A DNA stretch of 64,000 nucleotides from a virus. The translations under genes were made by a program, and so were the position numbers. Below, one piece after another: positions 961 to 53,396 of this stretch (position 1 is its first letter; each line of letters starts with the position of its first letter). Under the pieces are notes generated by a model. That model worked only from the letters and a program-made list of their open reading frames with translations. It did not search any database and was not told the DNA's origin. The stretch is from positions 7,165-71,164 of the IMG/VR virus record IMGVR_UViG_3300003177_000017; one strand, given 5' to 3'.

Positions 961-1407
961 ATGGCAGGATTAACGGATATTAGTGTCAGTAATTATACTG
1001 TACTTCAATATACCACAGACTCCGGTACTACATGGGTTGATATTACAAATGTTAATAGCATTGGTGATTTAACTGATGAAAAAACTATTGTTGATGTTCA
1101 AGAATATGGCGTGTCATATTTACGTAAATTAGTAGGTACTGCAAACGCTGGAACAGTGGATCTAACGGTAAACTTTAACCCAGCAGATACAAGTCATGTT
1201 TACTTATTGGCTTCATACAAATCTGGGTCACCAGAAATGTTTAGATTAGTTATGTATAATACATCGGCTAAAACACTAGGAAATTACATACAATTCAATG
1301 GGTTTGTTGGAACTAATACAATATCTAATTCGTTTGATTCATCTCGAACAGTAGTATTTAGTATTGCAGTAGATGGTGCATTAGGCGCACTTACTCCAAA
1401 CTTATAA
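961..1407 (+). CDS. Major tail tube protein (siphovirus)
   Basis: 148 aa, W..I..V.SIG, G...AG...LTVNF.P and F.GFV motifs; strong RBS; followed by hairpin terminator. Confidence 0.85.
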   Translation: MAGLTDISVSNYTVLQYTTDSGTTWVDITNVNSIGDLTDEKTIVDVQEYGVSYLRKLVGTANAGTVDLTVNFNPADTSHVYLLASYKSGSPEMFRLVMYNTSAKTLGNYIQFNGFVGTNTISNSFDSSRTVVFSIAVDGALGALTPNL

Positions 1408-1413
1408 TATTAT

Positions 1414-1435
1414 AATGGGGCTATGCCCCATTTTT
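1414..1435 (+). terminator. Intrinsic terminator after tail tube gene
   Basis: aatggggc-tat-gccccatt followed by T-tract. Confidence 0.75.
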
Positions 1436-1444
1436 GGATAAAAT

Positions 1445-2089
1445 ATGGCAGGAAAATCAACATCAAAAGATCAATTCTCGGTAACTACATATACTAAAGG
1501 ATTTAAAGAACTTAGTGATATGTTACGATCATTTATTGATCCAGTATTCAGGAAAAGAGCTTTGTTGGAAGCAGGTAGGAAAACAATGTTACCCTTAGTT
1601 CAAAAGTTTAGATCTGCTGCTCCTGAAATTAAAGGGGAAATGGCTAAAAAAAATCCAAACACTCCAGCAGGCATTTTGAAAAATTCTATTAAATATACAG
1701 CTAGTTACAACCAAGGGGTTAAATATAATAGACACGGAAAATATGTAAGTTTATCAAAATATGAATATGCAGGACAGATAAGAACAGGACAAAAATCAGA
1801 ACAATTTGCTAAGGTTATGGAATATGGTAGACCTGCATTTAAAGCAACTAGAGATGTTGTATTTGGAAATGTTGTATATCCTTATGATGTAATAATACCA
1901 GCGGTAAAACCAACAGCATTTATGCGTAAAACTTTAGACGCAAATTATTATAGAATGATCATAACATTTAAAAATGAACTTAAAAAATCTATTGATAAAC
2001 GAAAACTACAAGAAATAAGAAAAATAAAAGCATCAACTAGAAAGCTTATAAAAAAAGAAAAAATGCTTTCAAATATAAATCAATTATAA
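1445..2089 (+). CDS. HK97 gp10-like tail component
   Basis: KGFKEL start, G.LKNSI, EYG and P.AFMR motifs; basic protein. Confidence 0.75.
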   Translation: MAGKSTSKDQFSVTTYTKGFKELSDMLRSFIDPVFRKRALLEAGRKTMLPLVQKFRSAAPEIKGEMAKKNPNTPAGILKNSIKYTASYNQGVKYNRHGKYVSLSKYEYAGQIRTGQKSEQFAKVMEYGRPAFKATRDVVFGNVVYPYDVIIPAVKPTAFMRKTLDANYYRMIITFKNELKKSIDKRKLQEIRKIKASTRKLIKKEKMLSNINQL

Positions 2090-2106
2090 CAAATTAGGAG
2101 AACAAT

Positions 2107-2436
2107 ATGTTAGACAAATCTAAATTATTTAGCATTAAACCAAAAATTAAAAAAGTTTTTATAAAATCACTCAATGAAGATATATTCGTTAAAGAATTCG
2201 TTGTTGCAGAACGTAATAAAGTAAGAGAAGCAAATAAAACTGAGGATTATCAATTAATTATGATGATCTTAGGAATTTGTGATAAAGATGGTGTTCCTAT
2301 TTTTGATATTGATGATGTTGAACATTTATCTAATTTACCACAAGTAATAGCAGATGAACTGATGTTAGCGGTGGTAGATCATAATGAACCGAAGGATTCT
2401 CTTAAAGAAGCAAAAAAGTCGCCAGAGATCCAATAA
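2107..2436 (+). CDS. Tail assembly chaperone G
   Basis: Between tail tube and tape measure; ICDKDG.PIF motif; ends just after a slippery heptamer. Confidence 0.8.
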   Translation: MLDKSKLFSIKPKIKKVFIKSLNEDIFVKEFVVAERNKVREANKTEDYQLIMMILGICDKDGVPIFDIDDVEHLSNLPQVIADELMLAVVDHNEPKDSLKEAKKSPEIQ

Positions 2437-2870
2437 GAAAATTTCAACTTGAATTATGTATAGCATGGGGGCAACCTATAGAATATATAGAGTCATTACC
2501 AGATTCTATTTTATCAGAATTTATGGCATTGGATAGTATAATGCCATTTACTCCATCAGCCCCAGCATATAGAGAGGGATTATTGTGCGCATTGTTATAT
2601 AATCAAAATGCTACCAAAAAATCTAATACAATCTCAGTAGAAGAATTATTTCCATATCTAAAATCTGGCACACCAGAATGGTTGGAAGATCCAAGAATAC
2701 AAAAGACAAAGAAATTACTAAAATCAATAAATTGTCACTCACCAGATGTATATAAATCTAGCTATAATGACATTTGCGAAAAAATAAAAGAAGAAATTGT
2801 TATCGAAAAAAATAGTTCAGACCCAGACCAATATGTCATTAATAAATTAAAAGAATTCTTAACAGAATAG
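2107..2870 (+). CDS. Tail assembly chaperone G-T (frameshift product)
   Basis: -1 frame continuous from 2418 to stop at 2870; ATG 2523 is internal to it. Confidence 0.85.
2412..2418 (+). other. Programmed -1 frameshift site A_AAA_AAG
   Basis: G frame GCA AAA AAG; the -1 frame is open from here (KVARDPIRKFQLELCIAWGQP...) into ORF 2523-2870. Confidence 0.9.
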
Positions 2871-2879
2871 GAGATACAA

Positions 2880-5585: not shown

Positions 5586-5594
5586 GGAGACAAT

Positions 5595-6173
5595 ATGATA
5601 CAATTTCCTACAGGATTAATAATTTCTAATGTACACATATCGCATTATACTCCTAATTTTATTAACACCTCATTGAACTTAAAAACAACAACGTATAATC
5701 GAGGAGTACATCAAATAAAAGGATCTTTTGATGTTACTATAACTGGTGAACACGACAAAAGAATTTTTGAATCATTTTTAATGAAAATACAAGGTAAATT
5801 AAATCCATTTTTTATTAATTTAAAAGGAAGATTTAATTCGCCTACAGTCACTTCACCATTAGTTCCTGTATCAGCAACAGCAACGATTGGAGCATTATCA
5901 TTAAATACATCTACATTTATTGGTACAATATCTGAGGGGGATATGTTTACTATTAGTAATAGCACTAAGATACATATAGCAACATCTTTAACCACTACTA
6001 ATACAACTCTTACATTTTTCCCTCCGTTAGCAAAAGGGTTATTAATAACAGACCAATTAAATTTTAAAGATGTTAATTTATTAGTTAGAACTACTACTGA
6101 TGCACCAAACATGAGTTATACCCAGTCAGGGATCATTCACACAACAAAAATAAAATTTGAGGAAGTTATATGA
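5595..6173 (+). CDS. Distal tail protein-like
   Basis: Immediately after tape measure; GD.F and FFPPL motifs. Confidence 0.6.
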   Translation: MIQFPTGLIISNVHISHYTPNFINTSLNLKTTTYNRGVHQIKGSFDVTITGEHDKRIFESFLMKIQGKLNPFFINLKGRFNSPTVTSPLVPVSATATIGALSLNTSTFIGTISEGDMFTISNSTKIHIATSLTTTNTTLTFFPPLAKGLLITDQLNFKDVNLLVRTTTDAPNMSYTQSGIIHTTKIKFEEVI

Positions 6174-6694
6174 TATGTAATCTTGTACATCTGCAAATAA
6201 ATGATTTAAATGGTGGGGTTATACATTATAGGCTAAGTACATCAAATTTTGATGTGTCCTTCAATGGAAATACATACACATCAACAGGTGATCTTCTTAA
6301 AATAACAAACTCAGAAAACACAAATCAAATATCAAAAACTGGTATAAAAATAACAATGTCTGGGTTAGATCCAGCGTTTTTAACAGAAATAGACTCAGGT
6401 GCATATCTACGCGCTCCAATCGACATATACACGGTAAATATTCCAGATGGAACTAATGTAGTATCTAGCTACGCTTTTTACCACAGAGGATATTGTGATA
6501 CCCCTGTAACCGGTATTGATTATACATCAAACAAGCTAACAGTTGAAATAGAAACTACTAATGTTTTTACAGATATTGATAAAACTCCTAGTTTAATGAG
6601 ATCTTCATTATCTGCACATGCCAGTATTCATTCTGGTGATAAATTCTTTCAATATGTAGCAGACATTGACATTACCGAAATTTGGAAAAAATAG
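6170..6694 (+). CDS. Tail tip/hub protein (lambda L/DUF2163-like)
   Basis: FNGNTY...G.LL start, GDKFFQYV...W end; synteny. Confidence 0.6.
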   Translation: MICNLVHLQINDLNGGVIHYRLSTSNFDVSFNGNTYTSTGDLLKITNSENTNQISKTGIKITMSGLDPAFLTEIDSGAYLRAPIDIYTVNIPDGTNVVSSYAFYHRGYCDTPVTGIDYTSNKLTVEIETTNVFTDIDKTPSLMRSSLSAHASIHSGDKFFQYVADIDITEIWKK

Positions 6695-6703
6695 GAGAAT
6701 TTT

Positions 6704-7117
6704 TTGGATTCTATAACAAAAAAATTAAAATACATAATTAATAAATATAATAATAAAGAACGTATATGTGGTGAAATTGATTGTAATTTAATGATTTTGG
6801 AATTATATGAACCTGAATATTATAACAAGCTTAAAGGTAATTATTCTACTATAAAACAAGGGATCAAATTAGCTAAAAAAACAATAGGTTATAGATCTAT
6901 AAAAGAAATAATGGATAAATCAGGGAAATATACAGAGATCCCTTATAATTTTTGTGTGGCTGGAGATGTAGGCGTAGTAATGAATTCAAATTGTACATTT
7001 TTACATCTAGGAAAAGAATTGTTTATAATTAAAGATATAAAAAATAAAGAAATATTTAAAATTATAGATAAAAATTCAATAACACATGATATGTATAAAT
7101 TCTATAGGAGAAATTAA
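6704..7117 (+). CDS. Tail tip assembly protein, NlpC/P60-like
   Basis: GEIDC and GDV motifs; TTG start with AGGAG RBS; precedes tip protein. Confidence 0.55.
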   Translation: MDSITKKLKYIINKYNNKERICGEIDCNLMILELYEPEYYNKLKGNYSTIKQGIKLAKKTIGYRSIKEIMDKSGKYTEIPYNFCVAGDVGVVMNSNCTFLHLGKELFIIKDIKNKEIFKIIDKNSITHDMYKFYRRN

Positions 7118-10100
7118 TGTCAACATTAGAAATAACATTAATGTATATTGTTACCGCTATAAGTGTGTCCACATCAGTATATACATTATTAAATATGCCA
7201 CAGCAGCAAGATATAGGATCAAAAACACAAAAACGTGGAACTGATGCCCCTAGAAAGGTCGCATACGGTAGGTCTATAATAGATAGTACAAATGTATATA
7301 ATAATGTATTAAATGATAATTCTGCATGGATAGTTAAAGTATTTTCTTTGGGGGTTGGACCTATAACTGCTATAAGACAGGTATATGTTAACGATCTTCC
7401 TATATTAGAGCATGAAAATACAATATCCCCTGATGTAACATCATTAGTATCCCCAAACAACCCAAATGTAACATATACTTACACAAATAGTTCTTTTAGA
7501 TTTAAACGTGATAACAATGATTTCGTACATCAGTTCACCAGAAATCAAGACATTCAAATGCAATTCAGATATGGAAAAAATGCTGAGGTTGCCTCAGATT
7601 TAGCCATAGAATTTAGTGACAATGAATGGACTGTTGATCACCGTGGCGATAGGGTTCCCCATGTTGTAATGTCTTTATATAGATCAACAAATACAGATAC
7701 CCCTATATTATCTAGTGTATTTACACTTACTGCATTAGTTGAAGGAGTACCGGTACACGATCCTAGATTTCATGCAGCCGGAGTAAAAGAATACATACAT
7801 TCTAATTCATCAGTACCAGCAATAAATGTAAATATAGGTAGAAATCCAGCTCTTTGTCTTTTAGATTTTTTAACTGATACTTATTACGGAATGAGTGTAG
7901 ACTACAGTTATATCAATATACAAAGCTTTATGGACGCAGCAAATTGGACTGATACTAATAATTTACACGTAGATGGATCAGTAGATACAGGACAAAAATT
8001 TGGTGATTGTTTATCACAAATAATGTCATCATTTCAAGGGGTACTTGTATTAGAAAATGGGTTAATAACTTGTAAATATGAAGATATTGTATTAAATCCA
8101 TACAGCACAACATTCGATGAAAATAATACAATATCATTTAAAGATATAAAATCTGCATCACATAGTTCATATTATAATATAGTACAAACTAAGTACAAAA
8201 ATACATTAATGTTAGAAAAAGGAGATGTATACCAGATACCGGAAGATCTTAACTATATTCCCCAAGGTGCAACTAAATCAAGAATTCAAATAGATGGATT
8301 TAAAAAAGTAAAAACCTTAGATTTGCCTATGACATTAGGAAATTCTGATGGTGCATATCCAAAAGGTGGATATGGAATATCTTGGTTGATAAATGGAGTA
8401 CAAAAATATTTTCATTTAGCTTATGGGAATGATTCTATTGGATCAGGGTTTAGCCAAAGTCCTGTAGGAAAAACATTTGTAGGAACTTATATTGACACTA
8501 CATTAGCAGATGCAGCAACTGCAATCAGCTATAATTGGACTAATATAAACAACTCGCAAGGATATCTTAATAAACAAGGTATTGCAGGGATAGATGTATC
8601 AAACGCTCAAGTAAGCTATTTACATATTGCATTTGCAGACTCAATATCTGGATCTGGTTTTAATCAAATTCCAACAAGTAAGACATACGTTGGAACTTAT
8701 ATAGATTTTAATTTGTATGACAGTTTAGATACTACTAAGTACACTTGGGGATCGTTGTACAATAATTTTGAAATAAATGGGATCATGGATGGCTCAGTAA
8801 AATTTTTTACTAACCGATTATATGTTAAAGCACTGCACCAAAAAGGTGTGTCTATATCAGTAGATCTACAACAGTATCCAGTAAAATTATATGATGTTAT
8901 AAAAATATCAAATAAATCAATAGGTTGGGTAGATAAATTATTTAGAATAACAACAATAAATACATCAGTTAATGAGAATTCTTTTAATATTGGCGATTTA
9001 ATTTGTGTTGAATACAACGATAATATGTACACAGGATCGCTTGATGGATTAACTGGACGGAATATTAAAAGAACATATCAACATCTTAATCCAGTGACAA
9101 ATTTAGTATTTAATTTACATAATTTTATAACCGATGGGTATGGTACATTAACTTGGACAAATCCTAACACGATAGGAAATCTTAGTTATAAAATTCAATA
9201 TAAATTGTCCAGTGAAGTTGCATGGAAAGATACTGCCACCTCAGAAATAGAGCAAGCGGTTATTAATAACCTAAAACCAACACATTATGATTTTAGAGTT
9301 AAAGCTACAAGATTAAGATATTTTGATTCTGATTATACAGAAATTCTTAATGTGTTGGTATCACCAACGGTATTATTCCCCAACATAACTAATATTGCAT
9401 CTGATTATAGTGGATTAGACTTTATTTATTCTTGGGATGATATGGCACAAGTTGCTGTATTAAATACACAAGATCCAACAGATCCAAATTCCAATGGAAC
9501 CAGTGGAAAGGTCATTGATTATTTCAGTCATTATGAAGTTAAAGTTTTTCATAATAATATATATAAACAAAGCTTTATCACATCTGATCCTAAATTTGTG
9601 TACTTATATTCAAATAATAAAACTAATGTATTATCAAGAGCTGTTAATATTGAAGTATATATTGTTGCAAAAGACGGCACAAAATCGACTGCACCAGCAA
9701 TTATTTCTGGAACAAATCAGCAAATATCAGCACCAGCTAATATAAAAGTAAATGTATTATTAGGATTAGCTAACATATCATGGACACCAAGAACCGATTT
9801 AGATTTTGCTGGAACAGAAATTCACATATCAACGAATTCTACTTATGTTCCATCAGCAACAACTTTAGTAGATAACCTACAATCAGAATCGACATATCAA
9901 TATACTTATCCTGTAGGGGATATTGTAGATAGATACATTATATTAGGACACTATGATAATTTTAGTGAAACCGGTATAAATTATTCTGTACCTAAGTTAA
10001 TATCAACAACTGCAGGATTTCCTGTAAGTGATGCAAAAAATCTTAGTATTAGCTCATCAAGTCAGATATTTAGTTATGATTCTGGTGGGGTGTTACAAAG

Positions 10101-40688: not shown

Positions 40689-41729
40689 TTAATCACTTAG
40701 GTCAATGCTAGAAAACACGTCTGTATCCGGAACAGATTGATTAGCAAAAGGATCTTCTTCAATGCTTAGTTGTGATTCTGGTTCTGTATTAGTAATATTT
40801 GCAAACACGTCTGTATCTAATTCTGGTTCTGTATTAGTAATATTTGCAAGCACGTCTGTATCTGTTTGTGGTTCTGATTGTGGTTCTGATTGTTTTTCTT
40901 TCTCAAAAGGATTAGCACCGGCTTTAGCAGCAACTTCAGGATTGAATTCTTCATCCATGATTTTAGCGACATATCGACCGCCCAACACCTTGATCATTTC
41001 TGCCTTTAATTCATCATACGATTTGTAATTTGATTCTGATTCAAATTCTGCTAAATCATACATAGAATTATATAATTTCTCTTGCACTTCTTGTCTACCA
41101 CCAGCTAACGGTGATACTTGTTCAAATTCAGAGCTATCATAACTAAGGCTAAAATCACCATTTTCTGATCTTATTCTAAAATTTGCCCCTTGATCCCAAT
41201 CAAAAAATTCTAATGGTTTCTGATCTTCAAATTTAGGAAACCATGCTGCTTCTAATTTTTTAAGAATTGCTGGACCAAATTGATATAACATCACTTTACC
41301 ATTATTTTCTGGGTTTGCTTTATCATCTAATACTACGATATTAGTGATGTATTTTTTCTGAACTTTACGTTTACGTGCCATTGCAGCTTCAGCACCATTT
41401 TTACGTTCAGCATCAGGAATTTTAGCCCAATGTGCTTTATTTAATTCTGATACTGGATCAGGCTTATTAATACTAGATAAATTTCTGTTCCAGTAACTAT
41501 TACTGCCGTTTTTGAAACTAAATTCAGTCCAAGCAACCCACGGTACTGTAGGTTGTCCATCTGCATCATATCGTGGTAAGAAACGGATCAATGATGTACC
41601 TATACCGCTATCAGTGCTATATCTATGTTTCCATTGTCTAGGATCACGCGTAGAACTACCATCATCTTGAATTTTTGTTTTCATTGCAGCGTTGTTTACT
41701 TTGTTTTTTTTAATATCAGCGAATGACAT
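40689..41729 (-). CDS. Single-stranded DNA-binding protein (T4 gp32-like)
   Basis: D.R.W, IRFLP, DPVSE.N, NI.V..D..NPENNGKV.LY.FG, GANF, YD.S.F; acidic tail. Confidence 0.93.
   Translation of the reverse strand: MSFADIKKNKVNNAAMKTKIQDDGSSTRDPRQWKHRYSTDSGIGTSLIRFLPRYDADGQPTVPWVAWTEFSFKNGSNSYWNRNLSSINKPDPVSELNKAHWAKIPDAERKNGAEAAMARKRKVQKKYITNIVVLDDKANPENNGKVMLYQFGPAILKKLEAAWFPKFEDQKPLEFFDWDQGANFRIRSENGDFSLSYDSSEFEQVSPLAGGRQEVQEKLYNSMYDLAEFESESNYKSYDELKAEMIKVLGGRYVAKIMDEEFNPEVAAKAGANPFEKEKQSEPQSEPQTDTDVLANITNTEPELDTDVFANITNTEPESQLSIEEDPFANQSVPDTDVFSSIDLSD
40775..40863. repeat. 45-nt tandem duplication in gp32 acidic tail
   Basis: DTDV(L/F)ANITNTEPE twice. Confidence 0.85.
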
Positions 41730-42611: not shown

Positions 42612-45173
42612 TTAAATAAATAATGGATCAAGAGTTGGTTTTGGTTCTATATCCCATCCTATAACGTCTGTAATGCCAGTTATAGGCTTAATAAATGTTT
42701 TATAATACATTGTATCATAATCTACTTTATTATCTAATTTGAACTCTTTTGGGAACACATCAACAAACCCTATAACATTTTGATTTAATCTGTTAGGTTC
42801 TTCAAGATAAATATATCGCATTTTATCGCCATTGTTAATAACTTCATAATCAGTCAGTGATAATTTTTTAAGTTCATTGTTATAGTTTATTGCTGCTCTG
42901 GAGTTAAATGGTACAGTAACATCGTGCCTAAATGATCCGTCCGGTCTACAATAACTTTCCTCTAGTTTATTTACTCCCTTTGGAGCTGCTATTTGATGTA
43001 CACTAAAAGTGTTGTATTCTTTATGAAAATCTTTTATATAATTTTGCAATTCTAACTCATTCTTGGTTAGAATTATTTTTACAGTTTCTGTCATGGCATT
43101 TCTACACACTTCTGGAGTTGATGATTTAACTAAATCTAATCCCATTATTTTTAAATACGGTTCTTTAATTGTATATCTAACCCCCTCCATATCTAGTACA
43201 TTAGCTGCATATCTTTTCTTTGCAACAAAGAATACATCACTAGCAATCATTTCTCTAGCCATAACCATTTTTTGCTGAAATGCTTTGGTATAATTCGCTA
43301 ATTCTTGATACCATTTATCAAACAAAGGCTCTAACTTAGATTTGCACCACCGATCAAGGTATTCCACTATTTCCATAGTTTCCATATTTTTACAATTCAA
43401 CTCTACAAACCTTTCCATAGAAAACATAGTCGAATCTGTATCAGTTGCATAAATATATCTAACATTATCAGTGCATAATAGTTCATTGAAATATGTATTC
43501 AATTTATTATTTATCCATTTAATTGATAGCTGTCCACTTGTTGTTATTGATTCTGCTAATCGAATATCAAATAAAGAAAAATGTACATTAGCTAATGCAC
43601 CATAAGCAGAATTAAGTGCTAATTTACGACACAATTGATTCCCGTCTTTTATTCTATATTGCTGCATCTCATGATCATATTCTTTTTGAGATTTACTTGT
43701 TATGATATTATCTTTAATTGATATAGCTTTTTGATGATGCGTCAGCATTTCCTTTTTTATCTTTTTCCTTTCATTATACAATTTTTCCATCAATCTAGGT
43801 AATAATCCCTGACTATCAGTTTTGAAGGTACAACCATTTGGAGTCACACATAAGTTATTAGGTATTGATATATCCTCGTTAGCTATCATTTTGTCTATAT
43901 TTATATCTAATTTTAATGTAGTAATTTTCTCAGGACTTATATTATATTGCATAATCAGATGTGGATAGAGAGAATTTAAATCACTCGACATAAGCCATTT
44001 ATGTTTACCTATTTTTGGATCTAATACAAATCCACCAGCAAAACTTTGCTGCTGCTGATCTTTTTTTGGCGGTGTGATAATATTATCATCTATAGTATTT
44101 TTATAAATAATATTTTCCCATAATCCTACTGGACTGGACACTTCACTGAAATTTATTCCAGCTAAATATCCTAAACTGAAAGTAACATCAAAGAATCCTA
44201 ATTTATCATCTAAACCTTTAACAATATATACATCAATAATATTATAAATTTGATACAAATTTGGATCTTTTTTGTTTAAAGTTTTTAGGTTAGAAGCAAC
44301 TGAGCTGTAATCTACTTTTTCCGATACTTGTTCAACGCCCCCTATAAATCCTAATTTATAACTCTCTCTAGGCTTAAATCTATTTTTCTTATATAAATTA
44401 ATATAATCTAGATCATTTACACCTAAAATATACACTTGTTGATATTCTTTATTAAAAGTATTGATTTTAGTTTTGATCTCGCATACATTCCACGGTGATA
44501 ATTTTTTAGGATCTAAACCAAGACGTGTTAATCGGTTAAACAAATAAGGAAAATCAAATCCGCTTGAATTCCATCCAGATACATTAACTGGGAAATTAGA
44601 TTGCCAAAACCCTAATAAACCTTTTAATAACTGGGTTTCATTTTTGAATTTTACGTGTTTAATATTTTGTATGTTGTATTTACTAAGAAGATCTGAGTTT
44701 TTATCGAAATCATATAAACTAAATAAATAATAACAATCTGTTATATTGTCATATATTGTTAAACAATCAACCTGCCATTCTGCTAACATAGGATCAGGAA
44801 ACCCCTTATCACTAGGACATTCAATATCTATAATAAATGTTCTTATTAATTTAGGGTTATATTCGTTATTCTTAAATTGCTCATGCAAAAAAGTTAAGTT
44901 AAAATTTCTATTTCCATAATAATCAATGCCGGTATCTTTAGCTTCAAATATTGCTTTATTTGCGTCTTTAATTGTGTCGAACTGTATTCTTTTAAGTTTA
45001 TCACCATGTAAAGATGTGTATTTAGATATGCTTTTAACTGTGTTTTTAACTGTGTTTACTGTTTTAATATATAATGATGGTTTATATTTCAACTTAGTTC
45101 TAATTTCTTTGTTATTATTTATATACCTAAGTAAAATATTATTTCCTCTTTTATGACAACTTAAATAAAACAT
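42612..45173 (-). CDS. Family B DNA polymerase (T4 gp43-like)
   Basis: Exo DIE, GWN..FD, YN..DV; Pol DLNSLYP, K...NS.YG, DTDS, KKRY; C-terminal clamp-binding-like TLD.LF. Confidence 0.97.
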   Translation of the reverse strand: MFYLSCHKRGNNILLRYINNNKEIRTKLKYKPSLYIKTVNTVKNTVKSISKYTSLHGDKLKRIQFDTIKDANKAIFEAKDTGIDYYGNRNFNLTFLHEQFKNNEYNPKLIRTFIIDIECPSDKGFPDPMLAEWQVDCLTIYDNITDCYYLFSLYDFDKNSDLLSKYNIQNIKHVKFKNETQLLKGLLGFWQSNFPVNVSGWNSSGFDFPYLFNRLTRLGLDPKKLSPWNVCEIKTKINTFNKEYQQVYILGVNDLDYINLYKKNRFKPRESYKLGFIGGVEQVSEKVDYSSVASNLKTLNKKDPNLYQIYNIIDVYIVKGLDDKLGFFDVTFSLGYLAGINFSEVSSPVGLWENIIYKNTIDDNIITPPKKDQQQQSFAGGFVLDPKIGKHKWLMSSDLNSLYPHLIMQYNISPEKITTLKLDINIDKMIANEDISIPNNLCVTPNGCTFKTDSQGLLPRLMEKLYNERKKIKKEMLTHHQKAISIKDNIITSKSQKEYDHEMQQYRIKDGNQLCRKLALNSAYGALANVHFSLFDIRLAESITTSGQLSIKWINNKLNTYFNELLCTDNVRYIYATDTDSTMFSMERFVELNCKNMETMEIVEYLDRWCKSKLEPLFDKWYQELANYTKAFQQKMVMAREMIASDVFFVAKKRYAANVLDMEGVRYTIKEPYLKIMGLDLVKSSTPEVCRNAMTETVKIILTKNELELQNYIKDFHKEYNTFSVHQIAAPKGVNKLEESYCRPDGSFRHDVTVPFNSRAAINYNNELKKLSLTDYEVINNGDKMRYIYLEEPNRLNQNVIGFVDVFPKEFKLDNKVDYDTMYYKTFIKPITGITDVIGWDIEPKPTLDPLFI

Positions 45174-45380
45174 TATTCTATTACTCCTGCTTTCTTAATT
45201 TCTATAATATCATCTGCTGAAAATCCACAGTTTTTTGAGTTTAATTATATCCTCAATGACTATTTTATTTTCAATGACAATAGGGTAAACCCCGAATTGT
45301 GTAGTTACTAGAACACCGTTTTCATCATATATATATATATATCACCTGTGTGTGTTGTACTTTAAATATTGTGGTTTCAT
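45173..45380 (-). pseudogene. Degraded small ORF containing (AT)8
   Basis: AGGAG-ATG at 45380; frame broken at dinucleotide and homopolymer runs. Confidence 0.4.
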
Positions 45381-45500
45381 AATTTCTCCTTTAACGTTAG
45401 TAAAGTTTACTAACCAGTCTGCTATTTTGCCTATCTTGTTGTTTCAACTTCTTTACTAATTGTAGTATAGACCAATAATCATTTAGTCTTTTGGTTTTCT

Positions 45501-45770
45501 CTAACATAATTGTTCATGTTGTTCTTGTTTTACTTCTTTAAGTAAACTTTCTACACTTAGAGCAAACCGTAGATACCCTTCTGATTCAATAGCTGATACA
45601 GTTAGATTATGTTTTTCCATATCTTCCTTCAAGTATTTAGCATCTTCTATCAGATCTAATAAAGAATACTCTAAATGTTCATACATATACTTGTATGTAT
45701 CTTCATCATTAATTAACTGCTGTGCTTTTGCATGTATTAACTGTTCTAATTCTTGTTGTAAATGTTTCAT
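45501..45770 (-). CDS. Hypothetical protein
   Basis: 89-aa ORF with RBS. Confidence 0.55.
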   Translation of the reverse strand: MKHLQQELEQLIHAKAQQLINDEDTYKYMYEHLEYSLLDLIEDAKYLKEDMEKHNLTVSAIESEGYLRFALSVESLLKEVKQEQHEQLC

Positions 45771-45955
45771 TTTAGTTCTCCTGTATACTGGCTAATTACT
45801 TTGTGTACTGAACAACTCGCCCAACACATGCTGTGTTTTCTTTGGTTAGCATTATGTTCGTCTACTAGTTTATTAACGGTTTCCGCATCTTGATAAACGC
45901 CCTCTATAGTAAATCCTTCATAATCTACGTGGTGTTTTAATATATAAACTTTCAT
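45767..45955 (-). CDS. Hypothetical protein
   Basis: MKVY...DYEG..I.GVY pattern common in small phage proteins. Confidence 0.55.
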   Translation of the reverse strand: MKVYILKHHVDYEGFTIEGVYQDAETVNKLVDEHNANQRKHSMCWASCSVHKVISQYTGELK

Positions 45956-45983
45956 GTTAGTTTTCCTTCAATTTAATAAATGG

Positions 45984-46178
45984 TTATAAATAACATTTGA
46001 GGCTATCACACCAGTTTTTACGCTCAAGCGCTCGTAAACGTCTAACTACGTTCCCTCGGGGGTCGTAGCGTTTAGCTCCTTTTGCTTTTCTATTATTATA
46101 AGCTGTCGAATCTTCTCTGTTTAACCGTGAATTATTAAACTGTATCCTAGTATTTGCTAAATTTCCTAAATAAGTCAT
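45984..46178 (-). CDS. Hypothetical basic protein
   Basis: 64-aa ORF. Confidence 0.45.
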   Translation of the reverse strand: MTYLGNLANTRIQFNNSRLNREDSTAYNNRKAKGAKRYDPRGNVVRRLRALERKNWCDSLKCYL

Positions 46179-46183
46179 TTTAT

Positions 46184-46393
46184 CTAATCACTAAACCATT
46201 CGTAATTATCTTTGAAAAACTTTTCTGCAACTAACCACATATCAGATGAGTCTTTATCATTTATAGCAATCATATCGCCCACTCTAGGACTACCATTTTT
46301 CTTATCTGATTCAGATATACTAATTGAACATGTTAATAACCCCTCTACCCAAGGTGTCATTTCTTGTAGATATTTCTTTTTATAAAATGCCAT
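46184..46393 (-). CDS. Conserved phage hypothetical protein
   Basis: NGSP..GDMIA.N.....D.WLVA..FF.DNYE. Confidence 0.65.
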   Translation of the reverse strand: MAFYKKKYLQEMTPWVEGLLTCSISISESDKKNGSPRVGDMIAINDKDSSDMWLVAEKFFKDNYEWFSD

Positions 46394-46560
46394 TTTATCT
46401 CCTAATTTATTTAATGAAGGTTATCGTGCTAGAGCCTTTTTAACTGCTGCGGTAACACCACGTTTATTTTGTTGCATTAACACATACTCTGCATCTTCTT
46501 GTGTTAATAGCGTAGTTCTTGTTTTATCTTTAAAAACAACTCTAAATATTTTCCTCTAAT

Positions 46561-46676
46561 ACTTACAATTTCATATTCTATAGTTAATTCCTAAATTACA
46601 CTTACATTTCAGGATTATAATTAATCCGTATTTTGTTAGAAATACGGATTAATTCCGCTTATTTACAGTGTTATAT
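46561..46676. repeat. ~115-bp dispersed repeat copy 1, ending in attC right half-site
   Basis: Matches 48072-48187; ends GCTTATT-tacagt-GTTATAT. Confidence 0.85.
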
Positions 46677-46847
46677 TGCCTTAATCGCGTTATCTAGCTT
46701 TTTGCCAAACCAGCCAATAAACATCAATATATTAGCTATTGCTAATCCTGCGAATATTAATGGGCTTAAAATAATCAAAATATGCCAATAAATAAACCCA
46801 TACTTAATGCACATTTTTTTATAGTGTTTCCATCTGTCTATTTTCAT
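46671..46847 (-). CDS. Cassette-borne membrane protein (58 aa; not in ORF track)
   Basis: MKIDRWKHYKK...KAI*; stop lies in the GTTATAT core site. Confidence 0.65.
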   Translation of the reverse strand: MKIDRWKHYKKMCIKYGFIYWHILIILSPLIFAGLAIANILMFIGWFGKKLDNAIKAI

Positions 46848-46879
46848 ATATCACCCATAAAATTTAGTGCCAAAGGCAA

Positions 46880-46954
46880 ATATAACAACAAATTACAAAG
46901 GAAAAATACTCGCTGCGCTTAAAGCGTATTTTCCTCTGAATTAAAAGGTTATGT
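46880..46954 (+). mobile_element. attC-like recombination site (complete, 75 bp)
   Basis: R'' ATATAAC-5 nt-L'' ATTACAAA...L' TCTGAAT-6 nt-R' GTTATGT; arms pair with extrahelical bases. Confidence 0.8.
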
Positions 46955-46970
46955 AGTTTTATCTTTCTTT

Positions 46971-47009
46971 GCGTATGCCGCGTAATACGCTTAATAATAA
47001 AGGTTAGTT
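46971..47009 (+). mobile_element. attC-like right-half remnant
   Basis: gcgtat/atacgc hairpin, GCTTAAT, then GTTAGTT at 47003. Confidence 0.55.
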
Positions 47010-47243
47010 TGTTTTACGCGCTAATCTTGTGTCTATAAATAAATCAGAATTACTTGCTATTTTTGCCAGAAATCGCGGAACCCTTATCCATATGTATGGT
47101 AGTAACATATAGTTAAAACGGATGGCACTTTTTCCTGTTTCAGTGATTCGTGTAAAACATAAACTAACAACTGGCTCAAGCGGATTGTTTACAGTCGGTT
47201 GTTTTGTCATGCGTTCTAAACAAGCTTTGTAATTTGTTGTCAT
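47004..47243 (-). CDS. Cassette-borne hypothetical protein starting inside an attC site
   Basis: GGAG RBS and ATG inside 47162-47291; stop within core site at 47003. Confidence 0.6.
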   Translation of the reverse strand: MTTNYKACLERMTKQPTVNNPLEPVVSLCFTRITETGKSAIRFNYMLLPYIWIRVPRFLAKIASNSDLFIDTRLARKTN

Positions 47244-47291
47244 TATATTTTTCTCCGTTATTTCGTGGCAACGTTAGCCTAAAGGTTAGTT
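47162..47291 (+). mobile_element. attC-like site (130 bp, partly degenerate)
   Basis: R'' AACTAAC-aactg-L'' GCTCAAGC...L' CGTTAGC-ctaaag-R' GTTAGTT. Confidence 0.72.
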
Positions 47292-47453
47292 TGCTAAACC
47301 AAGCTTAGCGGCACAGCCAAGCAAACCCACTTCAAACAACTCTGGCTTATTGTTAAACCAGTTAGTTAAAGTCTGTAATCTCTGCCCTGTTAACTCGCTA
47401 ACTTGAGTTAGTGATTTTAATCCTAACTCTTTAGCTTGTTTGCTTGCTGTCAT
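47286..47453 (-). CDS. Small HTH DNA-binding protein
   Basis: MTASKQAKELGLKSLTQVSELTGQRLQTLTNWF; stop in core site at 47285. Confidence 0.7.
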   Translation of the reverse strand: MTASKQAKELGLKSLTQVSELTGQRLQTLTNWFNNKPELFEVGLLGCAAKLGLAN

Positions 47454-47457
47454 AATT

Positions 47458-47706
47458 TTACTCGCTACAGTATTCAACACGAACAAAATCACCACCCAAA
47501 TCAGAGGCAATAAAGTAGCCCGTACTTGTATACGGAGCCGTTATTCCGTTAGCAATTTCTTGTACACAAACACCAACAAAGCCTTTTACCTCTAAACAGT
47601 CAAGAAAATTAACAGAACTATCTGTGTTGAACATTTCAATGATTGAAGCCTTGATGGATTCTTTGACAGTTAAGCCTTTTATGATGGATACATTTAATAC
47701 TTTCAT
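47458..47706 (-). CDS. Hypothetical protein
   Basis: Likely start MKVLN at 47706, downstream of promoter. Confidence 0.55.
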   Translation of the reverse strand: MKVLNVSIIKGLTVKESIKASIIEMFNTDSSVNFLDCLEVKGFVGVCVQEIANGITAPYTSTGYFIASDLGGDFVRVEYCSE

Positions 47707-47759
47707 AATAATAATCTCTATATTTAATGTCGGCACTTATGTTTCGACTTGATGAAACT

Positions 47760-47787
47760 ATTATACCGAACTATTTAAAGAATACAA
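47760..47787 (-). promoter_or_regulatory. Sigma70-type promoter inside cassette
   Basis: TTGTAT-16 nt-TATAAT. Confidence 0.65.
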
Positions 47788-47814
47788 CAGTTATTTTAAA
47801 TTAATTTAGTAGTA

Positions 47815-47874
47815 ACATAACAAGGCAATTCAATCGGACTAACTACGCTTGCTGTTTAAATTTAAAGGTTAGGC
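47815..47874 (+). mobile_element. attC-like site (60 bp, probably internally deleted or chimeric)
   Basis: R'' ACATAAC-aaggc-AATTCAATCGGAC...ttaaag-R' GTTAGGC; L boxes pair poorly. Confidence 0.62.
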
Positions 47875-48071
47875 GGTTAATCTATTTCACCCCGTACTTT
47901 GTGTATATATATATATATATCTGTCGCTGTTAATAACGTACCTGCTTATACATCATTATTAATTATAATGTGAATTACTGGCTTGCTAACTATACCAAAT
48001 TGATCACATGCGTAATTTTCTATAGCCTCAAACATTTGTTCTTGGGTTAATATCATTTCTTTATCTCCAAT

Positions 48072-48187
48072 AGTTACAATTTCATATTTTAGTGTTAATT
48101 CCTAAATTACACTTACTTTTCAGGATTACACTTAACCTGTATTTCTGTTGAAACACGGAATAATTCTATTGATTAACAGTGTTAGTT
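48072..48187. repeat. ~115-bp dispersed repeat copy 2, ending in attC right half-site
   Basis: Matches 46561-46676; ends ATTGATT-aacagt-GTTAGTT. Confidence 0.85.
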
Positions 48188-48361
48188 CGCAAAACCTAAC
48201 ATCAAACCCATAGGTAATATCACTATTTTTATTGCTGTATTTTTTCCATTTGTAAATGTGCCTACATGTAATAGGTAAGTATCTTCACCTTTACTCCATA
48301 ATAGAGATTTTGCGAAATTGAGTATTATTACAAATCTCCAAAAACTTAAATTAATTTTCAT
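48182..48361 (-). CDS. Hypothetical protein (59 aa; not in ORF track)
   Basis: MKINLSFWRF...GFAN*; stop in core site at 48181. Confidence 0.55.
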   Translation of the reverse strand: MKINLSFWRFVIILNFAKSLLWSKGEDTYLLHVGTFTNGKNTAIKIVILPMGLMLGFAN

Positions 48362-48603
48362 CCCTTATACTCTTATTAAATGCAGTGTCTTCCATGTGTT
48401 TCATTACGTACTCAAATGTTAATTCTGCCATAGTCCTACTCCAGCATTCATAACCATTTTTCATCACTTTAATAGCAGCAGGACTTTGTTCATCATCCCA
48501 CTCATTCGGATCATCTGTAAACACAATTTACGCATCTGTGTTTCTAAATCATAATCCATAACATTTCCTCAATTTTGGTAATTTGTTATTTGTTAAATAA
48601 ATT

Positions 48604-49059
48604 TTATTCATCATAAATCCCTAATGCCTTAGCTACTGCAATAATATCTTCTTTGTTTGTCCAGCATAACCCGCGTTTAATTAGTACTCTTTCATACTTA
48701 TAATCAGTAAAAGTATCCTGGGTATACCCATGGCGCGCGCTACTAGTTAAGCTAAAGTATTGTTGATTATATTCTAACTTTTCCACTGGTGGATTAGCTT
48801 TTACTTTTACACCAAATACTGTGATTTCTGTTTTAGCTATTCTGTAACTGTACCCTGTTAAATTCACCCAATTGCTATAAATAGGGCCCTTTCTTTCCCA
48901 ATTGCTAGGGTATCCATTTATTTTATATTCTAATTCAGCACCGTTGATCCAAGCGCGCAGTATTTTTCTATTGTCTATAATTTCTTTCAAATCTAAAATA
49001 TTTAATTTGTTATCATCTAAGGATAAGTATATTTTTGCTTGCTCTTTTGTGATTTTCAT
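48604..49059 (-). CDS. Hypothetical protein
   Basis: 151-aa ORF; AW..GA..EY...W...YR pattern. Confidence 0.6.
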   Translation of the reverse strand: MKITKEQAKIYLSLDDNKLNILDLKEIIDNRKILRAWINGAELEYKINGYPSNWERKGPIYSNWVNLTGYSYRIAKTEITVFGVKVKANPPVEKLEYNQQYFSLTSSARHGYTQDTFTDYKYERVLIKRGLCWTNKEDIIAVAKALGIYDE

Positions 49060-49559
49060 TAGCTCACCCCAAATATTAATCTAATCTCTTTCTGCATGTT
49101 CTCTAACACCCACGCAATAGCTTCTTCACTTGTAGTGTACAAAGCCAATTCAGTATGTTGTGTTAGCACATACCATTCACAATCAAATACCTTTCTATTA
49201 TACTTATAAGCAAAGTAGTATTTCCTTTGGCGGTTGTTAGACCAATCAACTTCTTCTTGTTCAAGTTCCCTAAGCTTGTCAATAACAGCTTGTTTAGCAA
49301 CCATCTTATTATTAACTAATTCAGCCTCCTCTTTTGTTTTAAATACATTGCCTCTAGCGAATCTACGTTTATCAATAGTGTGATTAGCCCAAGTATCTAA
49401 AATATACACCCCCATACTATCCATGAAATAATATTTACCGCCAAACTCAGGTTTCCATCTACCTTTCTTAATTGGTTTAGTTTTACTAATAGGTGCATAA
49501 CCAGCTGTTAATAGGTCTGATTCACTTATTTGTACATTATTTATTTTTACTGTTTTCAT
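49059..49559 (-). CDS. Hypothetical protein, paralog A
   Basis: RBS GGAG before ATG 49559; RWKP..G..Y, GNVFKT.EEA. Confidence 0.65.
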   Translation of the reverse strand: MKTVKINNVQISESDLLTAGYAPISKTKPIKKGRWKPEFGGKYYFMDSMGVYILDTWANHTIDKRRFARGNVFKTKEEAELVNNKMVAKQAVIDKLRELEQEEVDWSNNRQRKYYFAYKYNRKVFDCEWYVLTQHTELALYTTSEEAIAWVLENMQKEIRLIFGVS

Positions 49560-49638
49560 TAGTTTATTCTCCAATAAGTCAATTTTATTGCCCATAACTC
49601 TGTACCAGTTATGGGTTTCATATCTAGCATTTTCATTA

Positions 49639-49959
49639 TTATTCCTCTAGTTCTACTTTACGTAGTATATAACCGTTTGGTTCACAAAAACCAGTTTCCC
49701 AATCTTCTGTCATATTAATATAGTCCAATTCATATACTCCATCATCAACTTGTTGTAAATTATCTATTAATGATAACAAGTCAATTTCCTCGCAGATTTC
49801 ATCATTGAGCAAGTCATGTCCTTTTGACTTTCTTTTTAGTGTAGTTAGTACTTTTGCATAAAAGTATTCATTGCCTCTTTTGAATGTTTTTGTTTTGAGT
49901 CTTACTATTGTTCTGTTATTATCGTGTGGTGTTTCTACTCCCAAGGTTAGTGGCTTCAT
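49639..49959 (-). CDS. Conserved phage hypothetical protein
   Basis: LKRKS.G...L, DG.YEL, DWETG. Confidence 0.6.
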   Translation of the reverse strand: MKPLTLGVETPHDNNRTIVRLKTKTFKRGNEYFYAKVLTTLKRKSKGHDLLNDEICEEIDLLSLIDNLQQVDDGVYELDYINMTEDWETGFCEPNGYILRKVELEE

Positions 49960-50459
49960 TAGCTCACCCCAAATATCAGTTTAAGTTCGGCTTGCATGTT
50001 CTCTAACACCCACGCAATAGCTTCTTCACTTGTAGTGTACAAAATTGATTCAGGGTATTGTGTTAGCACATACCAATCAATTTTAAATTTGTGAGTATGA
50101 TGATCATAACTAAAGAAATATTTCCTTTGCGTGCTATTAGACCAATCAATTTCCTTTCGCTCAAGTTCCCTAAGCTTGTCAATAACAGCTTGTTTAGCAA
50201 CCATCTTATTATTAACTAATTCAGCTTCTGATTCTGTTTTAAAGACATTACCTCTAGCAAACCGGTGAATATCGATAGGGTGTGCATCCCATATATCTTG
50301 ATTTAGTATACCACTTGCACTAATGCGCCAATAAATATCACCAAACCCAGGTTTCCATCTACCTTTCTTAATTGGTTTAGTTTTACTAATAGGAGCATAA
50401 CCAGCTGCTAGTAAATCTTCTTCACTTATTTGTACATCGTTAATTGTGATTGTTTTCAT
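49959..50459 (-). CDS. Hypothetical protein, paralog B
   Basis: Collinear with 49059-49559 at an exact 900-bp offset. Confidence 0.65.
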   Translation of the reverse strand: MKTITINDVQISEEDLLAAGYAPISKTKPIKKGRWKPGFGDIYWRISASGILNQDIWDAHPIDIHRFARGNVFKTESEAELVNNKMVAKQAVIDKLRELERKEIDWSNSTQRKYFFSYDHHTHKFKIDWYVLTQYPESILYTTSEEAIAWVLENMQAELKLIFGVS

Positions 50460-50545
50460 AATATATTTCTCTTTTAATTTATGTTGTTTATCAATTTCTA
50501 TACTTTTCAATAACTGACTAACATACGGCTTTGGTAGGTGAGTTC

Positions 50546-50752
50546 TCATACCTTTGACCCCCCGACAGATAATAGGGTATCAACATCGCGTAAATGACTA
50601 GACGTATCACTATGACTTTTTGCAAGCTCTAAAGCAATCATAGAGCCTTGGGGTATTTCTAAGTTAGCGATAGCATAACAATTGGCTTTAGTTGTGCTAG
50701 GCTCTAAGGTTTGTGCAAACTTAATCATTGCATTTTTGGTTTTAGGTAGCAT
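50546..50752 (-). CDS. Hypothetical protein
   Basis: 68-aa ORF with RBS. Confidence 0.45.
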   Translation of the reverse strand: MLPKTKNAMIKFAQTLEPSTTKANCYAIANLEIPQGSMIALELAKSHSDTSSHLRDVDTLLSVGGSKV

Positions 50753-51641: not shown

Positions 51642-52200
51642 TTTTGTTTTCCCATTTTAAAAATAATTCGTTTAATTCATCTTTCATTACTGACTCTGCT
51701 ACTGACCATGATGCTGCCCGTGCTAACCATGTTACTGACTCTGCTAACTGTGATGCTGCCCATGCTGCTGACTCTGCTGACTCTGCTGCCCATGCAGCTG
51801 ACCGTACAGCTGACCATGCTGACTCTGCCGCTGACTCTGCTGACTCTGCTAACTCTGCCGCTAACTCTAATTCTTTCTTTGTTATTTTTTTATTTATAAA
51901 ATCCTTTTTAGCTTGTATAGCTAGTCGCGGTCTTTTGTCATCAGGATAAATACTTTCAAAATTATGTAAACATGACATCGCCCAATCACAACCAAGTAGA
52001 TTTAAATCATCTTTTTGATTTTGACTGAACTCTGAATACGAAACAGAAATAAGCCACCAAATATCAGACCACCTATTTGAATCTAAAGCTTGTGATAGTG
52101 TAACAATATTATCGCCATGTGCTTGTTTAAATGTTTTTATAAAACTATTTGAACAAGAAGGTAGTTTTTTTAATTCTTTTATATCTAATGTTGTTTTCAT
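51634..52200 (-). CDS. Phage protein with Ala-rich AESA repeats
   Basis: D..WL, FE..YP.D.RPR.AI motif then AAESAAW repeats. Confidence 0.65.
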   Translation of the reverse strand: MKTTLDIKELKKLPSCSNSFIKTFKQAHGDNIVTLSQALDSNRWSDIWWLISVSYSEFSQNQKDDLNLLGCDWAMSCLHNFESIYPDDKRPRLAIQAKKDFINKKITKKELELAAELAESAESAAESAWSAVRSAAWAAESAESAAWAASQLAESVTWLARAASWSVAESVMKDELNELFLKWENKNE

Positions 52201-53262: not shown

Positions 53263-53273
53263 TGCAAGTTATC
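53214..53273 (+). mobile_element. attC-like site lacking R'
   Basis: R'' GCTTAAC-aaaat-L'' GGTCAACT tgac...gca L' AGTTATC. Confidence 0.65.
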
Positions 53274-53396
53274 TTCACCATCTAATTCAGATTGTAAATC
53301 GTCATAATCAGGTTCTTCACCATCTAATTCAGATTGTAAATCGTCATAATCAGGTTCTTCATCATAAAACTTTTTATAAAATTCAAGATCTTTCAT
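53259..53396 (-). CDS. Acidic 45-aa peptide with 42-nt tandem duplication (not in ORF track)
   Basis: MKDLEFYKKFYD(EEPDYDDLQSELDG)x2EDNLQ. Confidence 0.5.
   Translation of the reverse strand: MKDLEFYKKFYDEEPDYDDLQSELDGEEPDYDDLQSELDGEDNLQ

Follow-up and report, generated by a model that had tools for sequence, protein, structure and literature searches.

We analysed a 64,000-nt stretch of viral DNA (hereafter the window), corresponding to bases 7165 to 71164 of a linear, 71-kb IMG/VR virus record rated 67% complete, and focused on the interval from 46.67 to 47.87 kb, where three short sites resembling the attC recombination sites of integrons are interspersed with small genes of the opposite strand. 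The host phage of this cluster is an AT-rich marine phage (GC about 29–30%) carrying T4-like replication genes beside a small accessory-gene block. Its family-B DNA polymerase (PolB, 42612–45173) shares ~45% identity with the polymerase of Vibrio phages henriette 12B8 and V6Aob and is adjoined by a gp32-like single-stranded DNA-binding protein (SSB) and a gp59-like helicase loader. From the polymerase end to ~53.5 kb extends a row of small minus-strand open reading frames (ORFs) with no known families, and the attC cluster lies within this block. All genes of the region, namely ORF58 (46671–46847), ORF79 (47004–47243), a helix-turn-helix (HTH) gene (47286–47453), ORF82 (47458–47706), ORF36 and ORF59 (48182–48361), are on the minus strand and thus antisense to the attC sites, the longest ORF being antisense in both of the two intervals between sites. 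The interval is probably a small group of integron-type cassettes that lacks an integrase, in which whole genes could be moved and leaders would not be rejoined to new protein bodies. The sites and one remnant are the following:

46880..46954, plus strand: attC site B1, 75 nt; R'' ATATAAC, R' GTTATGT; crossover G46948|T46949; 7/7 core pairs, one of them G-T
46998..47010, plus strand: R'-only remnant (3' end of an attC); core GTTAGTT at 47003–47009; 13 nt identical to 47280–47292 in site A
47162..47291, plus strand: attC site A, 130 nt, of the chromosomal-array type; R'' AACTAAC (47162–47168), R' GTTAGTT (47285–47291); crossover G47285|T47286; 7/7 core pairs
47815..47874, plus strand: attC site C, 60 nt; R'' ACATAAC, R' GTTAGGC; crossover G47868|T47869; 5/7 core pairs

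Since Rfam gave no entry for the region, returning only chance snoRNA-like matches over 45000–50000, we built our own covariance models, distinct from those of IntegronFinder or HattCI. The aadA1 attC of plasmid R100 served as reference, reading on the gene strand R'' (GTCTAAC), a 5-nt spacer, an L'' box with one extra base, the loop, L', a 6-nt spacer and R' (GTTAGAT), and 80 class-1-like integron loci were the training source. A loose hand-made structural scanner was dropped, having returned about equal numbers of matches per strand in GC-rich DNA (296 plus against 309 minus); a strict one placed 52 sites on the array strand and 3 on the opposite strand. The first covariance model, R1, was made from 42 unique attCs of class-1-like integrons. 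For its calibration, intI genes were located in 173 of 401 genomes of one order and the 20 kb beside 20 of them were taken. In 370 kb of arrays adjoining intI, R1 gave 76 matches of at least 14.2 bits, all 76 on the strand predicted by the placement of intI, and in a subset searched with filters off the true array sites scored 8–30 bits against at most 9.6 for full-length matches on the wrong strand. Those 76 sites, from 11 of the 19 array loci searched and none from the phage, constitute the second model, R2.

Over the whole window with filters off, the best R1 match was site C (16.4 bits), with B1 at 12.8 and A at 8.8, lower in the list; the other R1 matches were short palindromes with the model interior deleted, A, B1 and C being the only full-length ones on that stretch. 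R2 ranked the three sites at the top of its 24 matches in the 64-kb window (A 30.6, B1 23.4 and C 21.2 bits; next match 13.3), published pipelines using thresholds of E ≤ 1 or at least 20 bits, and gave the R'-only remnant a partial match of 3.2 bits (46992–47009). In 100 kb of Vibrio phage henriette, its best match was a 37-nt palindrome (17.3 bits) and its longest spanned 71 nt (10.1 bits); in 19 pattern-matched viral loci plus two others (L003 and L004) nothing was found at E ≤ 1. As a positive control, R2 was run on the four phage records that Qi et al. (2023, PMC9892861) name and recovered attCs in three of them, at 33–50 bits.

The anatomy of the sites agrees with that of the aadA1 attC of R100. 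In the R2 alignment, both extrahelical positions, the 5- and 6-nt spacers and the L box are kept in all three sites, the standard model pairs are formed at 16/17 positions in A and in B1 and at 15/17 in C, and the primary sequence fits as well, with TAACAA..GCTCAAG..GA at the 5' end and CTTAGC..GTTAG at the 3' end. Only the R' of C satisfies the strict RYYYAAC/GTTRRRY consensus. A reading of the site on the minus strand, with the stop codon in R'', was rejected in view of the aadA1 attC layout and because the models score the plus strand only. BLAST of the sites against all 19 fetched arrays returned only matches of chance size (13–23 nt), with no near-identical attC and no source array. Scores and anatomy support A, B1 and C as integron-type attC sites. 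Because the 71-kb record has no integron integrase or other tyrosine recombinase (no match to TIGR02249 or PF00589), these three same-strand attCs within 995 nt form a cluster of attC sites lacking an integron integrase (CALIN), a term that takes two or more sites of one orientation within about 4 kb.

In a circularised cassette, R' consists of a G plus the unit's first six bases, and R'' is therefore expected to be complementary to the unit's own left border. The sole crossover of an attC is G|TT in R', as established for integrons and restated in passages of Qi et al. (2023, PMC9892861) and Loot et al. (10.1101/2022.09.11.507474). This rule puts unit borders at 46948|9, 47285|6 and 47868|9, and at 47003|4 in the remnant, dividing the region as follows:

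46671..46948, plus strand: cassette unit with ORF58 and attC B1; left border G46670|TTATAT complements the R'' of B1 at 7/7 positions
46949..47003, plus strand: gene-less 55-nt stretch, starting TTATGT and ending in the R'-only remnant
47004..47285, plus strand: cassette unit with ORF79 and attC A; left border G47003|TTAGTT complements the R'' of A at 7/7 positions; the ORF79 stop is the unit's first triplet
47286..47868, plus strand: segment between the crossovers of A and C, with the HTH gene (minus) and ORF82 (minus); of doubtful cassette status

The preceding G and first six bases of the gene-less stretch pair 7/7 with the R'' of C and not with that of any adjoining site, a fit that hints at a rearrangement. 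The 13-mer shared by the remnant and site A occurs just twice in the 71-kb record.

The same borders account for most of an observation made in the first-pass annotation, which was drawn from the letters alone: four minus-strand ORFs (46671–46847, 47004–47243, 47286–47453 or 47510, and 48182–48361) end in TAA followed by C, three of them in Asn-stop (AAC TAA C). This description was confirmed from the sequence, the three reading ...KTN, ...LAN and ...FAN and ORF58 ending in Ile-stop (ATA TAA C), and its attribution of the stops to attC cores holds for three of the four, each formed by the TTA of a G|TTA crossover core. The stop at 47286, that of the HTH gene, lies within the R' core of site A; the stop at 47004 lies within the R'-only remnant, whose core matches the R'' of A at 7/7 positions; and the stop at 46671 lies within GTTATAT, the exact complement (7/7) of the R'' of B1. 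The fourth, at 48182, falls within a 125-nt direct repeat (48060–48184) that is not an attC. TAAC gene ends are found in 16 of 93 proxy genes of the window against four of five between 46671 and 48361 (binomial p = 0.004); counted over both strands, the window has 22 copies of AACTAAC. Real arrays commonly have stops within attC: of 43 sense ORFs, 17 terminate at or past the attC start, and R' begins with GTTA in 63 of 76 sites.

The repeat that holds the fourth stop is present in two copies only in the window:

46549..46673, minus strand: D4a, 125-nt intergenic repeat with a 15-bp hairpin, a conserved 23-mer and a Shine-Dalgarno sequence (SD); not an attC
48060..48184, minus strand: D4b, second copy, after ORF59 (48182–48361); not an attC

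The copies are 82% identical, their homology beginning right at the upstream gene's TAAC stop and reaching to the next SD; the hairpin is a perfect 15 bp in D4a and decayed in D4b, the 23-mer is invariant, and the fold z of D4a is −3.8/−4.6. Neither gave a full-length R1 or R2 match in searches of the whole window or in a 2.4-kb search, the only R2 match in D4b being a 17-nt mini-palindrome (48171–48187, 7.5 bits). The attC sites claimed in the first-pass annotation thus divide into A, B1 and C, the top three R2 matches, which stand, and D4a and D4b, two of the four supposed suppliers of stops, which do not. We take the D4 repeats to resemble the promoter-early stem-loop (PeSL) modules of T4-type phages: like these, they combine a stem-loop, promoter-like sequence and an SD, repeated at gene junctions in a plastic region. 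They differ in having only two copies and a putative promoter, and the likeness covers D4, not the attC sites.

Several points weigh against the cassette interpretation. The segment 47286–47868 breaks the border rule, the R'' of C pairing at only 5/7 positions with its left border, and no gene ends at the core upstream of C, the ORF36 stop lying 72 nt before that site. Having every gene antisense is rare in bacterial arrays (3 of 49 cassettes in a first count, with 43 sense and 3 without an ORF; 1 of 58 in a second). The E-values (0.077 for C with R1; 1.4e-4, 0.005 and 0.015 for A, B1 and C with R2) are rough, coming from shortened calibrations, and R1 and R2 are not mutually independent, R2 descending from R1 matches. 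Relatives of ORF82 stand in phage-like contexts (L086–L089) without attC beside them. As to the integrase, it could lie on the missing part of a record that is only 67% complete. Finally, the folds are uneven. The bottom strand of B1 forms a canonical imperfect hairpin (z −2.09), site A folds weakly, with only its R box and 4 bp of its L box (z −0.32), and the minimum-energy fold of C has no hairpin (z +0.55), the latter two being no better than shuffles; for comparison, four of five bacterial attCs gave z from −1.9 to −4.2 and the fifth +0.12, and the three attCs of Pseudoalteromonas phage PH101 gave −1.5 to −2.6. A and C may have lost their recombinogenic capacity.

These weak folds would also be expected if the three sites were phage intergenic hairpins, such as terminators, RNA-processing or translational-coupling elements or D4-like junctions, that merely resemble attC. 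Such an explanation would also fit the record's lack of an integrase (shared by all five of the other viral records with such arrays that were tested, none of which has intI or a PF00589 recombinase), the antisense genes, unlike 48 of 58 bacterial cassettes, the ORF82 relatives without attC, and the presence of another repeated intergenic module, D4, likewise beginning at TAAC. Against it, the sites score 21–31 bits with a model trained on bacterial arrays only and fit it in primary sequence, they keep the extrahelical positions and the 5- and 6-nt spacers, the border complementarity is complete (7/7) in two units, and the controls in phage henriette and the pattern-matched viral loci were silent. 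In addition, the similar PH101 attCs, at 42–50 bits with R2 and also antisense to their genes, were recombined by IntI1 according to passages of Qi et al. (2023, PMC9892861). We therefore regard this explanation as improbable and retain attC as the likelier identification of the sites.

A chimeric assembly, or bacterial contamination fused to a phage contig, would agree with the GC of the cluster (0.36–0.39 against ~0.29 in the flanks), a rise that also supports the cassette interpretation, and with cargo genes that are orphan or nearly so. Contigs from three runs (one study, two samples) were compared, the third run being empty: independent contigs of the source sample, from two runs, span 45000–47496 and 47548–48499 with no differences and at an even depth of 5.5–7.2, bridging phage genes and attCs, and in strand and spacing the genes conform to the phage operon. 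We give this explanation almost no credence. The contigs break at a (TA)n run (~47903–47922) between site C and ORF36. They show no polymorphism and no joints at any G|TT or attC border in the sole sample with the sequence, a point against the cassette interpretation, though by themselves they speak neither for nor against mobility. Searches for near and distant DNA similarity in 50,697 phage records gave no match, and the closest PolB relative in IMG/VR was only 36% identical, so junctions were not comparable between relatives.

ORF79 is the gene most intimately associated with its attC. Its ribosome-binding site (RBS; GGAG, 47256–47253) and its start codon, ATG at 47243–47241 or at 47210, all lie in the loop of site A, and it reads ...PTVNNPLEPVVS... 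across the site, so that the RBS, the start and the N-terminal 16–27 residues, depending on the start, are supplied by attC as the first-pass annotation had proposed; from the first ATG, 27 codons are inside A. A promoter-like sequence completes the set:

47242..47271, minus strand: sigma-70-like promoter match, TTGCCA-18-TATAAT, inside attC A, pointing into ORF79 and just upstream of M12

It agrees with 11 of 12 consensus positions and is the best of 26 promoter-like sites in 45000–50000; such sites are no commoner there than in shuffles, and the match in A is a consensus match only. A role of site A in translational coupling through an attC hairpin found no support, its RNA or DNA fold being no better than shuffles.

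From this overlap it had been argued that recombination at GTT swaps protein bodies behind attC-coded leaders, giving a combinatorial gene-building system. Three observations could favour this: the start and leader of ORF79 inside attC A, five distant family members that share only its body and have other short N-termini, and attC-coded leaders with similar ends on unrelated proteins in two other viral records (L162 and L172, see below). Yet the only known crossover, in R' (47285|47286), is outside the gene. On the gene strand, it separates the upstream gene's TAA from the 5' untranslated region (UTR) of ORF79, and the crossover 47003|47004 lies just past the ORF79 stop, so the promoter-like site, RBS, start, leader, body and stop are all within one unit (47004–47285). 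Since the crossovers flank the whole of ORF79, one recombination event carries the gene together with its leader, and R'' (47162–47168), the expected switch point, is not a crossover point in the established mechanism. Leader and body shuffling does not follow from this anatomy; recombination would move whole genes.

Homologs lead to the same result. Among 5.8e9 proteins, ORF79 has one close homolog (P0002, 70 aa, 76–79% identity), which starts at the position of M12, the second in-frame ATG of ORF79. A domain switch at R'' had been the predicted signature of body swapping; in this single homolog the sequence runs on collinearly through R'' (NPVEAVVSFRFTRFTE against NPLEPVVSLCFTRITE). Searched exhaustively with phmmer, 1.84e9 representatives yielded five tiny metagenomic proteins (49–64 aa) sharing only residues 37–77 of ORF79 (IRFNY..PYIWIRVP..D), with short, unrelated N-termini and without its leader, which was found in no protein besides P0002. 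Four longer matches were discarded as repeat artefacts (internal-repeat proteins, 28–50% identity). Because the five distant members share only residues 37–77, the 36-residue N-terminal part of ORF79 is peculiar to this cassette lineage and is an other-strand translation of attC sequence. The similarity of leader ends between proteins follows from translating the conserved L''-spacer-R'' on the other strand: in the same frame, bacterial attCs give ..KPKSPTVSCLLEQFVR, with endings such as ..LLEQFVR and ..LERFVR, against ..TKQPTVNNPLEPVVS in the window. Taken together, we find it very unlikely that attC-coded leaders and protein bodies are recombined at GTT cores, and the proposal of a combinatorial system is not supported.

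The other cargo genes offer few leads. Pfam and PHROGs gave nothing beyond weak Xre-type HTH matches and one PHROG of unknown function, the HTH protein matching phrog_409 at 1e-4. ORF58, a small hydrophobic orphan, has no homolog among 5.8e9 proteins and is not homologous to ORF59, nor is ORF36 homologous to its counterpart; the ESM Atlas gave no usable lead for ORF82 or ORF79, and the ORF79 family was absent from our metagenome and IMG/VR scans. ORF82 has relatives at 36–71% identity, including those at 682–942 of L086 (54%) and 865–1131 of L087 (46%) in phage-like contigs. The relative in L087 adjoins a DnaB-like helicase and is followed by a small, possibly DNA-binding ORF, paralleling the position of the HTH gene after ORF82 in the window; judging from this arrangement, ORF82 and the HTH gene may be a conserved two-gene phage module.

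Elsewhere in the window, the accessory block holds a paralogous gene pair (49059–49595 and 49959–50549; 178 and 196 aa) with 83–84% DNA identity, 900 nt apart and separated by a 106-aa ORF, which looks like a recent tandem duplication. Also present are repeats of 9–12-nt period (CTGCTGAC-like) at 51699–51874, with a GC of 0.42–0.44 against 29% for the genome and inside overlapping ORFs on both strands, and an exact 42-nt tandem duplication at 53272–53355. A 45-nt tandem duplication with 96% identity (40775–40864) lies inside the SSB-like gene (40689–41729).

The antisense layout is not restricted to the window. IMG/VR was scanned with two degenerate patterns of the attC 5' half, and the loci were then searched with R2; the first scan yielded attC clusters in 4 of 23 loci, and the second, whose counts all rest on the 80 stretches listed out of 119, yielded 15 loci with two or more matches on one strand. 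A single script, taking ORFs from their first start codon, classified 58 bacterial cassettes as 48 sense, 1 antisense and 9 ambiguous, and those of class-1-like arrays as 13, 0 and 1. The 40 cassettes of the 15 viral loci, whose viral status is mostly IMG/VR's call and which were not dereplicated, were 2 sense, 14 antisense and 24 ambiguous (viral against bacterial, Fisher p = 3e-11). Antisense ORFs stopped at G|TTA in 23 of 56 viral attCs against 2 of 74 bacterial ones (Fisher p = 2e-8); likewise, 23 of 56 viral attCs contained the end of a sense ORF of 60 aa or more.

One such case is L162, a 64,270-nt IMG/VR record of 100% rated completeness that encodes an RNA ligase and a DnaD-like loader, as well as five DNA methyltransferases (two N6_N4_Mtase, three MT-A70) among its cassette cargo. 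Its locus at 1300–8600 has seven attC matches on the strand opposite to the genes; an antisense ORF starts inside attC at all seven, and the stop is the core TTA at five. Four of the seven leaders (one a duplicate) end in ..VEKLVS, ..LEKLVS or ..LKPLVI, against ..LEPVVS for the leader in the window, and stand on unrelated bodies, including an MT-A70 methyltransferase; peptides of this kind on unrelated proteins had been predicted in the first-pass annotation. In L172 (41,176 nt, 96% complete), the locus at 2200–4460 has six attC matches antisense to a row of small genes, one of which (4183–4452) encodes a lipoprotein-type signal peptide (..LLVALTGC) with its hydrophobic core coded inside attC. 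Among published cases, the three plus-strand attCs of Pseudoalteromonas phage H101/PH101 (NC_029094, 76228–78355; 42–50 bits with R2) face annotated genes gp133–gp137, all on the minus strand, MW202573 has one site, antisense to its annotated genes, TJE1 is sense, and P12002L gave no R2 match, even in a looser search of the genome. The inverted, overlapping gene layout thus recurs on viral contigs. We found no description of this orientation bias in our literature searches or in main-text passages of Qi et al. (2023, PMC9892861), a paper whose supplements list attC coordinates and strands and could bear on the point.

Bringing these elements together, model scores and anatomy identify the attC sites, all genes lie antisense to them, and two units have complementary borders. 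How the cassettes came to be there can be proposed in outline. A host integron integrase would act in trans during the infection of an integron-bearing marine gammaproteobacterium, and cassettes would be inserted into the accessory-gene block of the phage by attC × attC or attC × GWT recombination. A well-formed unit runs from one G|TT crossover to the next with one complete gene on the attC bottom strand, the stop codon of which is the TTA after the G of the crossover core. In the case of ORF79, the putative promoter, the RBS, the start and the first 16–27 codons occupy the loop and 5' half of its own attC. The units would be transcribed along the attC bottom strand, either by read-through of the phage operon or from promoters carried by the cassettes. 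With G|TT in R' as the sole crossover, the host integrase would excise or insert whole genes with their own leader, not join leaders to new bodies. Sites A and C would have partly decayed since.

A broader proposal is more tentative, and we hold it to be possible rather than probable: viral attC arrays may form a distinct inverted class of cassettes, with a bottom-strand gene, attC as a 5' module and a TAA|C end, insertable behind TAAC stops, of which the window cluster would be a partly decayed example. In such a class, attC would carry the 5' UTR, RBS, start and a leader of ~20–45 residues ending in an LExxV(S/I)-like motif. As TAAC is G|TTA on the other strand, and thus a GWT target, a host integrase could place a unit immediately after a TAAC stop codon in a compact phage operon without disturbing the upstream stop; read-through would then express the unit, whose own end would restore the target. 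Such targeting would explain orientation, stops and starts together, an argument from anatomy; insertion behind a TAAC stop is not seen at the upstream end of the cluster, where ORF36 stops short of site C.

In the usual description, an integron cassette is a gene without a promoter of its own that precedes its attC and is transcribed from the promoter of the integron. On the viral contigs, genes lie on the other attC strand, and it is common for them to terminate in the crossover core and to begin within the site. If this is true of phage-borne cassettes at large, they would constitute a separate pool, expressed by rules of its own; phages would offer cassettes a path of transfer that requires the host's integrase only; and annotation pipelines expecting sense cassettes would mislabel those of phages. 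The inverted layout on viral contigs deserves a proper survey.

Compared with known systems, the window represents one further virulent phage with integron parts. CALINs in virulent phages as such are already published (Qi et al. 2023, PMC9892861), and roughly 20 virulent phages are reported to carry integron parts. Like the phage CALINs described in passages of that paper, the window has at least two attCs within 3–4 kb, over 20 bits and without intI; those CALINs come from marine hosts (Pseudoalteromonas phage PH101, a Polaribacter phage), with cargo of unknown function or methyltransferases. PH101 is the closest in layout, its three plus-strand attCs being opposite to minus-strand genes as in the window. 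It differs in that the window sites score lower (21–31 against 42–50 bits with R2), two of them folding weakly, and in that the window genes overlap the sites, with stops in the R' core and one start in the loop, whereas the PH101 sites are purely intergenic. Neither antisense orientation nor overlap is mentioned in these passages.

The sedentary chromosomal integrons of marine Gammaproteobacteria, with attCs of ~120–130 nt, share with the window the consensus followed by site A along R'', L'', part of the loop, L' and R', as well as units bounded by G|TT, an R'' complementary to the unit's own first bases, and small, orphan cargo. They differ from it in possessing intI, attI and the integron promoter (Pc). 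The three sites of the window are unlike one another (130, 75 and 60 nt), and the genes beside them are on the attC bottom strand against 48 sense, 1 antisense and 9 ambiguous of 58 bacterial cassettes. No intI with attI and Pc beside the array, as in a complete integron, is present in the 71-kb record, and no gene on the attC top strand followed by its attC, as in a standard cassette, is present in the cluster.

Passages of Loot et al. (10.1101/2022.09.11.507474) on insertion into genome sites (attG, 5'-GWT-3') and on single attC sites outside integrons (SALIN) describe a route by which a host integrase could place cassettes in double-stranded phage DNA at GTT, and predict a later decay of attC ('domestication'), both of which would suit the window. 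That work differs from our case in concerning E. coli and V. cholerae chromosomes, not phages, and its passages report no preference for stop codons or orientation. In ORF-11 and ORF-18 of attI1 and the short ORFs of attC, finally, a recombination site likewise supplies translation signals, the donation of stops, starts and short ORFs by attI1 and attC being already documented, and passages of a review (PMC8876359) describe short ORFs in attC as aiding the translation of the next cassette; those are coupling peptides of the top strand, whereas in the window it is the cargo protein itself that starts in attC, on the bottom strand and within the bounds of its own unit, with no crossover spanned.

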